Shown here in pieces: positions 2,855 to 61,602 of a stretch of 64,000 bases of DNA. The DNA comes from Escherichia coli (GTDB lineage Bacteria > Pseudomonadota > Gammaproteobacteria > Enterobacterales > Enterobacteriaceae). Both the position numbers and the translations under genes were made by a program. Below the pieces are notes generated by a model. It was not told where the DNA came from, ran no database searches, and saw only the letters and a list, made by a program, of their open reading frames with translations. Position 1 is the first letter of the stretch. Every line of letters begins with the position of its first letter. The DNA lies in assembly GCF_013122565.1 (NCBI RefSeq), contig NZ_CP053258.1. One strand, given 5' to 3'.

Positions 2855-4252
2855 ATGCATCATCTTTCAAGGCTTGATAAAGCCTTTCTGCGCAAAGGGA
2901 TCCAACTTTCCCGCGCCAACAATATTGTTTCATTATCTCGTCCATCAGGTGTCAGTGCCCGCGTACTGCTGCCAGACGAACTGCCGCTGGAAGAAAAAGC
3001 AGTAACACAACTGCTTGATTTTGCAGAAGTGAAGCTACCAGACCACCCAGGTTATGTACGCCAGACGTGTGCGACGCCAGATTTTCATCCCGGCAATGGC
3101 GTCCCCGTTGGCGCGGTGGTAGCCTCAACGCCGGATTTAGTCATTCCCGCCGCCATCGGCACCGATATTTCTTGTGGCATGCGGCTGCTGACGACCGGAA
3201 TAACACTTGAGCAAGCCGAAGCGCATAAAGACGTCATCACTCAGCGGTTAACGCAAGTGTTACTGCAAAATGAGCGCGATGTTCCGTTATCTGCACGAGC
3301 GTTCACCGCGCTTTTTGATGGCGGGCCGGCAGATTGCATGTCGGCCTTGCCATCAGCAGGTCTCTGGACACGCACGAATATCCCCCGAATGGTACAAGAG
3401 ATTGACCGCTGCATTGGGCTGAACGAGCATAAAAGTCATTCGCGTTATGCCCCACCCGCCCTGCTGGCAACGGACCGCGCATTACTCCGCGACCCTTGTC
3501 TGGGTACGCCGGGTTCAGGTAATCATTTTATTGAACTTCAGGTAGTTGATAGCGTGATCGATCGCCATGTAGCCTGGCAACAAGGGCTGAAAACAGGCGA
3601 TATCGTGGTGATGATCCATAGTGGATCGCGAGATGTCGGCTTTTACGTCGGACGACGCTGGACGGACCGTGCCCGCGCAGACTGGCCCGCTGGGCATAAA
3701 CATCCACAAAGCGGGTTATATGGTCTGGCTGGTGGACTGGCGGAGGAATATCTACAAGCGATGGGAATGGCGGCGCGTTACGCATGGTTAAATCGCGTGA
3801 CCATTACGGAAATGGTGCGCGTATGTTTTGCCGATTTATTCCATCAGGATGAATCACATCTGGTGGTGGATGTGCCGCATAACATCATCCTTCGCGAGCA
3901 TGAGATGAATATTCATCGCAAAGGCGCAACACCGGCACGTGCGGGCGATCTGGCGTTAATCCCCGGTTCAATGGGCGATTATTCGTGGCTTGCGGTAGGT
4001 TGCGGCAACCCGGAGTGGTTGTGGTCATGCAGTCACGGAGCAGGACGCAGCCAGCGTCGGCAGGCCATGCGCGCACACGCGACTGAAGAGTCAACGCTGC
4101 CGTGGCAATGCGTAACACTGCGTGAAGAACGGCGTATTGAGGAAGCGCCAGCTGCTTATAAAGATATTGGTCCGGTTATCGAAGCCCAACAAGAAGCTGG
4201 ATTAATTCAGCCAGCGGTCAGATTTCGACCGTGGTTAACGTTTAAGGCATAA
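2855..4252 (+). CDS. RtcB-family RNA ligase paralog (orphan)
   Basis: 465 aa with the RtcB signature motifs DISCGMR, GSGNHFIE, HSGSR, HN...HRKGA, IPGSMG and SHGAGR. Stop codon is immediately followed by the sucD 3' terminator palindrome. Confidence 0.8.
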   Translation: MHHLSRLDKAFLRKGIQLSRANNIVSLSRPSGVSARVLLPDELPLEEKAVTQLLDFAEVKLPDHPGYVRQTCATPDFHPGNGVPVGAVVASTPDLVIPAAIGTDISCGMRLLTTGITLEQAEAHKDVITQRLTQVLLQNERDVPLSARAFTALFDGGPADCMSALPSAGLWTRTNIPRMVQEIDRCIGLNEHKSHSRYAPPALLATDRALLRDPCLGTPGSGNHFIELQVVDSVIDRHVAWQQGLKTGDIVVMIHSGSRDVGFYVGRRWTDRARADWPAGHKHPQSGLYGLAGGLAEEYLQAMGMAARYAWLNRVTITEMVRVCFADLFHQDESHLVVDVPHNIILREHEMNIHRKGATPARAGDLALIPGSMGDYSWLAVGCGNPEWLWSCSHGAGRSQRRQAMRAHATEESTLPWQCVTLREERRIEEAPAAYKDIGPVIEAQQEAGLIQPAVRFRPWLTFKA

Positions 4253-56101: not shown

Positions 56102-57766
56102 ATGTGTTCAATTTTTGGCGTATTCGATATCAAAACAGACGCAGTTGAGCTGCGTAAGAAAGCACTCGAGCTGTCACGCCTGATGCGTCATCGTGGCCCG
56201 GACTGGTCCGGTATTTATGCCAGCGATAACGCCATTCTCGCTCACGAACGTCTGTCAATTGTTGACGTTAACGCGGGGGCGCAACCTCTCTACAACCAAC
56301 AAAAAACCCACGTACTGGCGGTAAACGGTGAAATCTACAACCACCAGGCATTGCGCGCTGAATATGGCGATCGTTATCAGTTCCAGACAGGGTCTGACTG
56401 TGAAGTGATCCTCGCGCTGTATCAGGAAAAAGGGCCGGAATTTCTCGACGACTTGCAGGGCATGTTTGCCTTTGCCCTGTACGACAGCGAAAAAGATGCC
56501 TACCTGATTGGTCGCGACCATCTGGGGATCATCCCACTGTATATGGGGTATGACGAACACGGTCAGCTGTATGTGGCCTCAGAAATGAAATCGCTGGTGC
56601 CAGTTTGCCGCACGATTAAAGAGTTCCCGGCGGGGAGCTATTTGTGGAGCCAGGACGGCGAAATCCGTTCTTACTATCATCGCGACTGGTTCGACTACGA
56701 TGCGGTGAAAGATAACGTGACCGACAAAAACGAGCTGCGTCAGGCACTGGAAGATTCAGTTAAAAGCCATCTGATGTCTGATGTGCCTTACGGTGTGCTG
56801 CTTTCTGGTGGTCTGGATTCCTCAATTATTTCCGCGATCACCAAGAAATACGCCGCCCGTCGCGTGGAAGATCAGGAACGTTCTGAAGCCTGGTGGCCGC
56901 AGTTACACTCCTTTGCTGTAGGCCTGCCGGGTTCACCGGATCTGAAAGCAGCCCAGGAAGTGGCAAACCATCTGGGCACGGTGCATCACGAAATTCACTT
57001 CACTGTACAGGAAGGTCTGGATGCCATCCGCGACGTGATTTACCACATCGAAACTTATGATGTGACCACTATTCGCGCTTCAACACCGATGTATTTAATG
57101 TCGCGTAAGATCAAGGCGATGGGCATTAAAATGGTGCTGTCCGGTGAAGGTTCTGATGAAGTGTTTGGCGGTTATCTTTACTTCCACAAAGCGCCGAACG
57201 CTAAAGAACTGCATGAAGAGACGGTGCGTAAACTGCTGGCCCTGCATATGTATGACTGCGCGCGTGCCAACAAAGCGATGTCAGCCTGGGGCGTGGAAGC
57301 ACGCGTTCCGTTCCTCGACAAAAAATTCCTTGATGTGGCGATGCGCATTAACCCGCAGGATAAAATGTGCGGTAACGGCAAAATGGAAAAACACATCCTG
57401 CGTGAATGTTTTGAGTCGTATCTGCCCGCAAGCGTGGCCTGGCGGCAGAAAGAGCAGTTCTCCGATGGCGTCGGTTACAGTTGGATCGACACCCTGAAAG
57501 AAGTGGCGGCGCAGCAGGTTTCTGATCAGCAACTGGAAACTGCCCGCTTCCGCTTCCCGTACAACACGCCGACCTCAAAAGAAGCGTATCTGTACCGGGA
57601 GATCTTTGAAGAACTGTTCCCGCTTCCGAGTGCCGCTGAGTGCGTGCCGGGCGGTCCTTCCGTCGCGTGTTCTTCCGCTAAAGCAATCGAATGGGATGAA
57701 GCGTTCAAGAAAATGGACGATCCATCTGGTCGTGCGGTTGGTGTTCACCAGTCGGCGTATAAGTAA
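56102..57766 (+). CDS. asnB: Asparagine synthetase B (glutamine-hydrolysing)
   Basis: Start trimmed to MCSIFGVFDIK (N-terminal catalytic Cys after Met); 554 aa; SGGLDSS PP-loop. Confidence 0.98.
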   Translation: MCSIFGVFDIKTDAVELRKKALELSRLMRHRGPDWSGIYASDNAILAHERLSIVDVNAGAQPLYNQQKTHVLAVNGEIYNHQALRAEYGDRYQFQTGSDCEVILALYQEKGPEFLDDLQGMFAFALYDSEKDAYLIGRDHLGIIPLYMGYDEHGQLYVASEMKSLVPVCRTIKEFPAGSYLWSQDGEIRSYYHRDWFDYDAVKDNVTDKNELRQALEDSVKSHLMSDVPYGVLLSGGLDSSIISAITKKYAARRVEDQERSEAWWPQLHSFAVGLPGSPDLKAAQEVANHLGTVHHEIHFTVQEGLDAIRDVIYHIETYDVTTIRASTPMYLMSRKIKAMGIKMVLSGEGSDEVFGGYLYFHKAPNAKELHEETVRKLLALHMYDCARANKAMSAWGVEARVPFLDKKFLDVAMRINPQDKMCGNGKMEKHILRECFESYLPASVAWRQKEQFSDGVGYSWIDTLKEVAAQQVSDQQLETARFRFPYNTPTSKEAYLYREIFEELFPLPSAAECVPGGPSVACSSAKAIEWDEAFKKMDDPSGRAVGVHQSAYK

Positions 57767-58075: not shown

Positions 58076-58104
58076 TTGACGCTGCAAGGCTCTATACGCA
58101 TAAT
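58076..58104 (+). promoter_or_regulatory. Sigma-70 promoter of the metT tRNA operon
   Basis: TTGACG (58076-58081), 17-bp spacer, CATAAT (58099-58104), then GC-rich discriminator GCGCCCCGC typical of stringently controlled stable-RNA promoters; AT-rich UP-like region upstream. Confidence 0.6.
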
Positions 58105-58144: not shown

Positions 58145-58221
58145 GGCTACGTAGCTCAGTTGGTTAGAGCACATCACTCATAATGATGGGGTCACAGGTT
58201 CGAATCCCGTCGTAGCCACCA
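58145..58221 (+). tRNA. metT: tRNA-Met (elongator, anticodon CAT)
   Basis: GGCTACGTAGCTCAGTTGGTTAGAGCACATCACTCATAATGATGGGGTCACAGGTTCGAATCCCGTCGTAGCCACCA; cloverleaf with encoded CCA. Confidence 0.95.
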
Positions 58222-58230
58222 TCTTTTTTT

Positions 58231-58315
58231 GCGGGAGTGGCGAAATTGGTAGACGCACCAGATTTAGGTTCTGGCGCCGCAAGGTGTGCGAGTTCAAGTC
58301 TCGCCTCCCGCACCA
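58231..58315 (+). tRNA. leuW: tRNA-Leu (anticodon TAG), long variable arm
   Basis: GCGGGAGTGGCGAAATTGGTAGACGCACCAGATTTAGGTTCTGG...CTCGCCTCCCGCACCA. Confidence 0.95.
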
Positions 58316-58338
58316 TTCACCAGAAAGCGTTGTACGGA

Positions 58339-58413
58339 TGGGGTATCGCCAAGCGGTAAGGCACCGGTTTTTGATACCGGCATTCCCTGGTTCGAATCCA
58401 GGTACCCCAGCCA
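58339..58413 (+). tRNA. glnU: tRNA-Gln (anticodon TTG)
   Basis: TGGGGTATCGCCAAGCGGTAAGGCACCGGTTTTTGATACCGGCATTCCCTGGTTCGAATCCAGGTACCCCAGCCA. Confidence 0.95.
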
Positions 58414-58447
58414 TCTTCTTCGAGTAAGCGGTTCACCGCCCGGTTAT

Positions 58448-58522
58448 TGGGGTATCGCCAAGCGGTAAGGCACCGGTTTTTGATACCGGCATTCCCTGGT
58501 TCGAATCCAGGTACCCCAGCCA
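58448..58522 (+). tRNA. glnW: tRNA-Gln (anticodon TTG), duplicate
   Basis: Identical to the glnU sequence. Confidence 0.95.
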
Positions 58523-58537
58523 TCGAAGAAACAATCT

Positions 58538-58614
58538 GGCTACGTAGCTCAGTTGGTTAGAGCACATCACTCATAATGATGGGGTCACAGGTTCGAATCC
58601 CGTCGTAGCCACCA
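58538..58614 (+). tRNA. metU: tRNA-Met (elongator, anticodon CAT), duplicate
   Basis: Identical to the metT sequence. Confidence 0.95.
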
Positions 58615-58662
58615 AATTCTGAATGTGTCGAATACGTTCGGCAAATTCAAAAACCAATTTGT

Positions 58663-58737
58663 TGGGGTATCGCCAAGCGGTAAGGCACCGGATTCTGATT
58701 CCGGCATTCCGAGGTTCGAATCCTCGTACCCCAGCCA
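58663..58737 (+). tRNA. glnV: tRNA-Gln (anticodon CTG)
   Basis: TGGGGTATCGCCAAGCGGTAAGGCACCGGATTCTGATTCCGGCATTCCGAGGTTCGAATCCTCGTACCCCAGCCA. Confidence 0.95.
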
Positions 58738-58774
58738 ATTTATTCAAGACGCTTACCTTGTAAGTGCACCCAGT

Positions 58775-58849
58775 TGGGGTATCGCCAAGCGGTAAGGCAC
58801 CGGATTCTGATTCCGGCATTCCGAGGTTCGAATCCTCGTACCCCAGCCA
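58775..58849 (+). tRNA. glnX: tRNA-Gln (anticodon CTG), duplicate
   Basis: Identical to the glnV sequence. Confidence 0.95.
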
Positions 58850-58856
58850 CATTAGA

Positions 58857-58890
58857 AAAGCTCGCTTCGGCGGGCTTTTTGCTTTTTTGC
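58857..58890 (+). terminator. Intrinsic terminator of the tRNA operon
   Basis: AAAAGCTCGCTTCGGCGGGCTTTTTGCTTTTTTGCG: GC stem with tetraloop followed by T-runs. Confidence 0.7.
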
Positions 58891-58967
58891 GTATATTCAA
58901 TGTCGAATGCGATGTTGACTCGTCTTATCCTTCAAAGTCGGATGCGACGCTGCCGCGTCTTATCCGA

Positions 58968-60191
<1,224 letters not shown>

Positions 60192-60192
60192 C

Positions 60193-60252
<60 letters not shown>

Positions 60253-60281: not shown

Positions 60282-61457
60282 CTACACCCCTAACGCATAT
60301 TTCAGCGCCTGACGTTTCAACACGCCAGCACGCTCCGCCGCCATCAAACCAAGATTACGCACAAAACGCAGCGGCGGCAGATTATTACTGAATCCGGCAT
60401 AAAACAGATCCATACCACTTTGCATAATGAAGTTATCCGCCATGCGCCGCATCTGGTAACGCTTGAGGACAGGATAACTGGCCCACGCTTCGCCATAGCT
60501 ACGGGCGTTGACCAGAACATCAATCAGGGCATCGACATCACGATAACCAAGATTCACCCCCTGCCCCGCCAGCGGATGGATGGTATGCGCGGCATCGCCC
60601 ACCAGCGCAAGCCCTGGTTGCACATACTGCAACGCATGGCGACGTGTCAGCGGAAACGCACCAGCGGCAAGCGGTGTAACGTAACCCAGACGCGACGGGA
60701 AATGCTTCGCGATTTCCGCCTGGAGCTGCGCCATATTCATATTCTGCAACTGGCGAATGCGCGCCGGAGAGTCATACCACACCAGCGATGCCCAGTTATC
60801 AAACAACGGCAGAAACGCACGCGGTCCGTCCGGGGTAAATTGCTGCCAGGTGCTATCGCCGGGATCGTTCTCGCACTGGATGCTAATCAACATGCACGAC
60901 TGCGCATACTGCCAGGCATGAACGCCAATTCCCGCCATCTGCCGCACCTGCGAATTTGCGCCGTCGGCACCAATCACCAGCTTCGCGCGGATCGTTTCTC
61001 CACCCTTCAGTTCCAGCTCCTGAAGATCATCATGGCGATGCAGCGCAATCAGTGAGCCTGGCACACGTAACGTTACTTTCGGATGCGCTTCCAGCGCCTG
61101 CCACAGCGCCTGTTGCAGGACGGTGTTTTCCACCATATAGCCAAGCAACGGTAGCTTAAGTTCAGCAGCATCAAACACCACATGCGCCGTTTCCCACTCC
61201 CACGTTTCCAGTCTGTGGTAAGGATGGCAACGCATAGCCTGTACTGCATCCCAGACCCCTAACCCTTTAAGCAATGATACCGAAGCCGCGCTGATCGCCG
61301 AGATCCGCACGTCCGGTTGGCTATCAGCGACAAACGGCGCTGGTTCTGCGTGCTCGATCACCGTTACCGAAAATCCGTGCTGTGCCAGCCCCAGCGCCAG
61401 TGCGCCGCCGACCATTCCTCCGCCGACAATGGCAATTTCCGTTGGTTGATTTGTCAT
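60282..61457 (-). CDS. ubiF: FAD-dependent ubiquinone biosynthesis hydroxylase
   Basis: Start trimmed to MTNQPTEIAIVGGGMVGGALALGLAQHGF (FAD GxGxxG); about 391 aa. Confidence 0.95.
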   Translation of the reverse strand: MTNQPTEIAIVGGGMVGGALALGLAQHGFSVTVIEHAEPAPFVADSQPDVRISAISAASVSLLKGLGVWDAVQAMRCHPYHRLETWEWETAHVVFDAAELKLPLLGYMVENTVLQQALWQALEAHPKVTLRVPGSLIALHRHDDLQELELKGGETIRAKLVIGADGANSQVRQMAGIGVHAWQYAQSCMLISIQCENDPGDSTWQQFTPDGPRAFLPLFDNWASLVWYDSPARIRQLQNMNMAQLQAEIAKHFPSRLGYVTPLAAGAFPLTRRHALQYVQPGLALVGDAAHTIHPLAGQGVNLGYRDVDALIDVLVNARSYGEAWASYPVLKRYQMRRMADNFIMQSGMDLFYAGFSNNLPPLRFVRNLGLMAAERAGVLKRQALKYALGV

Positions 61458-61602
61458 GGTCAATCATCCTGTTAGCAATATGCTTTAAGTTTACAGGATT
61501 TTTACCCCTAAGGGCTGATAACGCTCATACTGGTCACAACGGCAGCAAAGCATTACACTATGCGCCCTGCATTCCTGGCTACTATTTCGCAAGAGCAAGT
61601 CG

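Follow-up and report, generated by a model that had tools for sequence, protein, structure and literature searches.

The metT tRNA operon in an Escherichia coli genome and the variation of its gene copy number among complete genomes

The array of seven tRNA genes described here is the already known metT operon of Escherichia coli, in its ordinary form. The explanation that best covers all the observations, to which we attach a probability of about 95%, is that of the known operon read as one transcript, with old paralogous genes kept identical and with unequal exchange between them at low frequency. The copy number of the operon varies in E. coli, a few per cent of the complete genomes carrying from one to five Gln(CUG) genes and, within the same few per cent, from one to at least three Gln(UUG) genes or additional units of Met-Leu-Gln. 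As a discovery this has a small weight, since the operon with its identical pairs, the way it is processed and its being essential all belong to the textbook biology of E. coli; the count of the copy-number variants in complete genomes is the sole mildly new item. The sequence of the metT operon was reportedly determined by Nakajima, Ozeki and Shimura in 1981 (in Cell).

Methods

The window, i.e. the whole stretch of 64,000 nucleotides that was analysed, was searched for tRNA genes with ARAGORN and Rfam and compared with E. coli K-12. Presence and copy number of the operon were surveyed in 5426 complete E. coli genomes from RefSeq. Queries that combined long flanks with one repeat copy gave coverage without discrimination, the wild-type pieces being merged into one place, and were replaced by short queries centred on the unique spacers, for which a missing junction indicates the loss of a unit and extra places the gain of one. 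For the glnW-Met-leuW junction, only single-piece matches at 100% coverage were counted. For comparison with other species, one genome per species was scanned for the anticodon arm of tRNA-Leu(UAG) and then analysed with ARAGORN.

Results and discussion

Gene content and relation to the K-12 operon

ARAGORN places seven tRNA genes on the + strand of the window at 58145-58849, and the Rfam family RF00005 matches the same seven places with scores of 57.6-71.1 bits, the gathering score being 29. The gene order, on which both programs and the K-12 annotation agree, is Met(CAU)-Leu(UAG)-Gln(UUG)-Gln(UUG)-Met(CAU)-Gln(CUG)-Gln(CUG), all in the same orientation, with spacers of 9, 23, 34, 15, 48 and 37 nt, in this order, and with the CCA end encoded in all seven genes. 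The coordinates and the seven-tRNA order given by a first-pass annotation of this DNA are exact by ARAGORN and Rfam, and its gene names agree with those of K-12. The genes are as follows.

58145..58221, + strand: metT, elongator tRNA-Met(CAU), 77 nt, CCA encoded; corresponds to K-12 metT (ARAGORN, Rfam, K-12 alignment)
58231..58315, + strand: leuW, tRNA-Leu(UAG), 85 nt, single copy (ARAGORN, Rfam, K-12 comparison)
58339..58413, + strand: glnU, tRNA-Gln(UUG), 75 nt (ARAGORN, Rfam, K-12 annotation)
58448..58522, + strand: glnW, tRNA-Gln(UUG), 75/75 with glnU (ARAGORN, Rfam, direct comparison, K-12 annotation)
58538..58614, + strand: metU, tRNA-Met(CAU), 77/77 with metT (ARAGORN, Rfam, direct comparison, K-12 annotation)
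58663..58737, + strand: glnV, tRNA-Gln(CUG), 75 nt, unlike glnU and glnW at 7 positions (ARAGORN, Rfam, K-12 annotation)
58775..58849, + strand: glnX, tRNA-Gln(CUG), 75/75 with glnV (ARAGORN, Rfam, direct comparison, K-12 annotation)

The ORF for asparagine synthetase B (asnB) lies upstream of metT on the same strand and ends at 57766; downstream of the operon, the ubiF ORF (60282-61463) lies on the opposite strand, with miaB next to it. In K-12 MG1655, glnX-glnV-metU-glnW-glnU-leuW-metT occupy 696430-697133 between ubiF and asnB. The two loci are alike in their genes and the order of these, in strand with respect to asnB and ubiF, in spacer lengths (within 1 nt) and in the terminator hairpin, and unlike in that the window carries IS621 in the downstream REP region, at a site which is empty in K-12. 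Only three differences were found over 705 nt, namely substitutions at 58627 and 58635 and a 1-nt indel at 58649; as all three sit in the metU-glnV spacer, the seven tRNA genes are all identical to those of K-12. The 1191-nt metT region is present in 5424 of the 5426 complete E. coli genomes, and at least 80% of this query is covered in 5357 of them. Some E. coli genomes (locus L004, positions 1533-1970; WB61, locus L130; locus L131) have about 430 extra bp between asnB and metT, with a 438-bp ORF annotated as a hypothetical protein, an insert that is missing in both the window and K-12.

Transcription unit and essentiality

The signals that flank the array in this strain are motif matches.

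58076..58104, + strand: promoter-like TTGACG-17 nt-CATAAT (10/12), followed by a G+C-rich discriminator, GCGCCCCGC (consensus scan, pattern match only)
58855..58880, + strand: Rho-independent terminator with an 11-bp stem, a UUCG loop and a T-run (motif scan and fold)

The first of these is the sole promoter-like site that the sigma-70 consensus scan detected on the + strand between asnB and metT, and its G+C-rich discriminator is of a type usual in stable-RNA promoters. The terminator hairpin starts six bases after glnX and folds with -16.8 kcal/mol (z = -3.3). One promoter-like site and one terminator hairpin are thereby present at the positions expected for a single unit: a promoter of the stable-RNA type about 40 nt upstream of metT would give rise to a single seven-tRNA transcript ending at the hairpin past glnX. 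Its maturation would proceed as in K-12, with RNase E trimming the terminator, RNase P parting the tRNAs and the CCA ends already encoded.

The single transcript, the route via RNase E and RNase P and the essentiality are taken from the K-12 literature and not from the window data. In K-12, a full-length transcript with all seven tRNAs is documented; it is mainly RNase E that removes its terminator, before RNase P separates the tRNAs (Mohanty and Kushner, PMC2241853). The unit comprises all the genes for the elongator tRNA-Met, tRNA-Leu(UAG), tRNA-Gln(UUG) and tRNA-Gln(CUG); it is not on the list, in a systematic study, of units that can be deleted without consequence, and has been deleted only with plasmid support (PMC11480407, PMC6265465). 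As the sole supply of the elongator tRNA-Met, tRNA-Leu(UAG) and both tRNA-Gln species, the unit as a whole is essential.

Identical gene pairs and the age of the layout

The first-pass annotation had described the array as a tandemly duplicated operon with three sequence-identical gene pairs and partly similar spacers. The pairs hold on direct comparison, with 77/77 matches for metT/metU and 75/75 for both glnU/glnW and glnV/glnX, a perfect identity over 75-77 nt that is far above the chance expectation. The Gln(UUG) and Gln(CUG) genes differ at 7 of 75 positions, comprising the wobble base and six stem positions, which may be read as three compensated pairs, and the longest identical run they share is 29 nt. 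The similarity of the spacers is not borne out: local alignments of the relevant spacer pairs against 2000 shuffles gave p values from 0.09 to 0.96, none of which stands out, and the likeness is thus not above that of shuffled sequence. According to the repeat finder, the gene repeats reach just 2-9 nt past the gene ends, and upstream of the two Met genes 6 of 9 positions match (p = 0.17).

The identical pairs could in principle stem from a Met-Gln-Gln block that was recently duplicated in tandem in this lineage, as the layout Met-(Leu)-Gln-Gln / Met-Gln-Gln resembles a duplicated module and as Pasteurellaceae carry the first module alone. We consider such a recent event very improbable, given that the spacers of the two halves are alike no more than by chance, that the Gln genes of the halves have diverged as above, mostly at stem positions in apparent compensated pairs, and that the seven-gene order also occurs in Citrobacter werkmanii and E. 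albertii and, nearly the same, in Superficieibacter and Acerihabitans. As C. werkmanii and E. albertii have the same order, the layout of the metT operon is older than E. coli. Any duplication of the Met-Gln module must likewise be old, because the spacers hold no trace of it and the Gln genes differ at 7 of 75 positions. The tandem duplication initially proposed is supported in part: the duplicate origin of the second module stays plausible in view of the Pasteurellaceae with the first only. An old duplication of the first module, predating E. coli, is a plausible source of the second, Met-Gln(CUG), module, and the unrelated spacers agree with it.

Related clusters in other species and the upkeep of copy identity

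The clusters of Haemophilus, Rodentibacter, Photorhabdus and Vibrio share with E. coli the core order Met(CAU)-Leu(UAG)-Gln(UUG), whereas the second module, Met-Gln(CUG) with one to three Gln(CUG) genes, is confined to the Enterobacterales among the gammaproteobacterial species sampled. The pasteurellacean genera Haemophilus and Rodentibacter are limited to Met-Leu-Gln(UUG)-Gln(UUG); Citrobacter werkmanii and E. albertii have the seven genes in the order of E. coli, Superficieibacter has eight, three of them Gln(CUG), and Acerihabitans has six. Vibrio shows variable (Met-Leu-Gln)n arrays; long arrays of Met-Leu(UAG)-Gln(UUG) units were observed in several species of the genus (loci L013, L044, L070 and L074), V. 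hannami having 11 tRNA genes in 1.4 kb. The same sort of repeat plasticity operates in these Vibrio arrays on a larger scale.

The copies within a species were then compared with those of E. coli. In Citrobacter, the two Met copies depart from E. coli by a single shared change. The Gln(UUG) pair shows no internal difference in either Haemophilus or Rodentibacter and is 8 nt off E. coli, and in a Vibrio the copies of Met, of Leu and of Gln are each uniform and 1-10 nt off E. coli. Identity within and difference between species form a pattern of concerted evolution, with exceptions: the Gln(CUG) copies of Citrobacter differ by 5 nt, and copies in Acerihabitans by 1-3 nt (Gln(UUG) by 3 nt). No differences were found between the tRNAs of E. 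coli, E. albertii and Superficieibacter.

Since the tRNAs hardly vary in the Enterobacteriaceae, purifying selection alone could explain the identity of the pairs there. In a general form of this explanation, the pairs would be maintained by purifying selection on each tRNA alone, gene conversion playing no part and the copy variants being rare accidents that do not help to keep the copies alike. Strong selection is indeed indicated by the identical tRNAs of the three genera or species just named, and the unlike copies of Citrobacter and Acerihabitans also suit such an explanation. It is nevertheless an unlikely one, as the copies usually share their changes where the species differ (Citrobacter Met; Haemophilus and Rodentibacter Gln(UUG); Vibrio Met, Leu and Gln) and as comparison of strains shows unequal exchange between the copies directly. 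We therefore infer a homogenisation of the copies, in which old paralogues would be held identical by purifying selection together with gene conversion or unequal exchange.

Copy-number variation among E. coli genomes

The first-pass annotation had pointed to the repeats as a substrate for recombination that could alter tRNA copy number, and had suggested a comparison among strains. That comparison, carried out over the 5426 genomes, reveals both losses and gains of the repeat units, with the junctions expected of such recombination. The counts for the three spacer-centred junctions are given below; some variant counts may be assembly errors, and in a few genomes an absent junction could represent a diverged spacer.

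glnV-glnX junction: present in 5267 genomes, absent in 159; 5300 places, maximum 4 per genome
glnU-glnW junction: present in 5341 genomes, absent in 85; 5381 places, maximum 3 per genome
leuW-glnU junction: present in 5412 genomes, absent in 14; 5434 places, maximum 3 per genome

A spacer-Gln(CUG)-spacer query was matched in a single piece at 100% coverage in 27 of the 5426 genomes, in several spacer identity classes. The junction glnW-spacer15-Met-spacer9-leuW, which would be expected only as a product of unequal exchange between metT and metU, was found in one piece in 10 of 5426; the count of 5192 obtained for the same query at 80% coverage is meaningless, because wild-type alignments enter the similar 9 nt upstream of the Met genes. 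Loci read directly include those of ETEC6333, with a single Gln(CUG) gene, K-12 GM4792, with five Gln(CUG) genes, Origami2(DE3), with Met-Leu-Gln-Gln-Gln-Met-Leu-Gln-Met-Gln-Gln, and STK78-E, with three Met-Leu-Gln units followed by Met-Gln. The canonical set, to which the window belongs, is kept in at least 93.6% of the 5426 genomes, a bound obtained by summing all the departures.

The direct repeats, 75-77 nt in length and perfect, are long and identical enough for homologous exchange. Unequal exchange of the RecA type would add or remove units of 109 nt between glnU and glnW, of 112 nt between glnV and glnX, and of 393 nt (Met-Leu-Gln-Gln) between metT and metU, and from the structure of the junctions we infer homologous recombination as the probable mechanism of the copy changes.

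The departures run both ways and occur in several backgrounds, as judged by the spacer identity classes among the expansion matches. That dosage polymorphism of tRNA-Gln and tRNA-Met in natural E. coli recurrently arises at the array as a hot spot, affecting about 6% of the genomes at most and selected to tune the supply for Gln and Met decoding, is nonetheless a doubtful proposition, to which we lend little credence; if it were true, the dosage changes would be adaptive and not neutral accidents or assembly noise. Copy variation at the metT locus is of relevance to the tRNA gene counts that enter codon-adaptation indices and to the users of Origami2(DE3), Rosetta2(DE3) and GM4792. Published surveys of metT copy number across strains were sought in the literature, and only general work and K-12 strain papers came up.

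Reliability of the assembled locus

Assemblies designated complete can be wrong at the metT locus of E. coli. In CEA224S (NZ_CP166080.1; locus L003, positions 3360-3380), all seven genes are missing from such an assembly, the gap beginning one base ahead of metT and ending with the last base of glnX, and the rest of the record giving no match to the query; it is odd that this gap meets the gene boundaries exactly. In WB61 (NZ_CP020025.1; locus L130, positions 2335-2601) the array is reduced to Met, a Leu remnant and a single Gln(CUG), with Gln(UUG) missing at the locus; the 82-nt Leu remnant is annotated in the record and was not called by ARAGORN. Both states are regarded as artefacts because essential tRNAs would be missing, the gap of CEA224S being probably an artefact of assembly or post-processing and the array of WB61 likely a collapsed assembly.

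The array of the window might similarly owe its form to repeats collapsed or expanded in assembly, its true copy number being another. Tandem repeats of 75-77 identical nt with periods of 109-393 nt can be mis-assembled, and the implausible states in other complete assemblies illustrate the hazard at this very locus. However, the array is the canonical one, as in the great majority of the surveyed genomes and in K-12, with spacer lengths that agree within 1 nt, and ordinary reads or read pairs exceed the repeat periods in length. We hold an artefact here to be extremely improbable; nothing suggests a collapse or an expansion, and the array of the window is taken as normal.

Redundancy and suppressor alleles

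The duplicate genes for tRNA2-Gln were described in 1979 (Inokuchi et al., as cited in PMC4444293). In the classic amber suppressor supE44, one of the two Gln(CUG) genes is altered, and the literature places the allele in glnX, the seventh gene (PMC4444293, PMC11148124). The redundancy of the pairs allows one copy to become a nonsense suppressor (supE, supB) while the other stays normal. In E. coli 035053C1pKPC2_Vir_090515B1 (locus L129, positions 1184-1258), the sixth gene, at the glnV position, has the amber-suppressor anticodon CTA and is without annotation in the record; this could be an independent allele or one transferred between the identical copies.

The downstream IS621 element

The first-pass annotation also noted an insertion sequence adjoining the tRNA array, which is confirmed as IS621. 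Two features follow the operon, both outside it.

58896..58970, + strand: two tandem 35-nt REP-like repeats, 83% alike, ending TTATCCGACCT (repeat finder, empty K-12 site)
58971..60249, + strand: IS621 (IS110 family), 1279 bp (comparison with the empty K-12 site)

The two REP-like repeats, which span 58896-58965, directly follow the operon terminator, and the second of them is the target of IS621, which is inserted after CT in the repeat (...TTATCCGACCT|ACAGTTGG...). The transposase ORF spans 59162-60142 (326 aa) and is annotated in near-identical loci as 'IS110-like element IS621 family transposase'. The element, which begins 90 bp after the terminator hairpin, is not part of the transcription unit and occupies this site in only 4 of the 5426 complete E. 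coli genomes. No role of the element in the tRNA repeats was seen, and a link between IS621 and the copy-number changes was rejected on its position, the rarity of the site and its absence from the variants inspected.

The 12-nt string TATCCGACCTTG occurs in the non-coding left end of IS621 (59033-59044) and also spans the left junction (58961-58972). It would suit the left target guide of a bridge RNA of the IS110 type, as reportedly described by Durrant et al. 2024, matching the REP-like target. The putative left guide and the left flank recur unchanged in two other IS621 copies, at speB (locus L132) and at nagA (locus L133). The segment presumed to be the right guide reads CTGCGCGGTAG in the window and in C9, and CTGTTGCGTAG in strain 2018-05-2CC; the right flanks differ in parallel with it (ACAGTTGG versus ACGTTCGG), and on this side the complementarity of guide and target is imperfect. 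An Rfam search of the non-coding left end of IS621 matched no family.

Comparison with known systems

The classic case of tandem tRNA repeats that change in copy number by unequal recombination is that of tyrT/tyrV (su3) in E. coli. In Pseudomonas fluorescens SBW25, large tandem duplications are reported to alter the tRNA dosage (PMC7661048, PMC10954465). The metT array resembles both cases in having identical direct tRNA repeats and whole-unit gains and losses among strains. It differs from the large-scale duplications described for SBW25 in that its units measure 109-393 nt and lie inside one operon, and the events recorded here come from natural and laboratory genome assemblies and not from a selection experiment.
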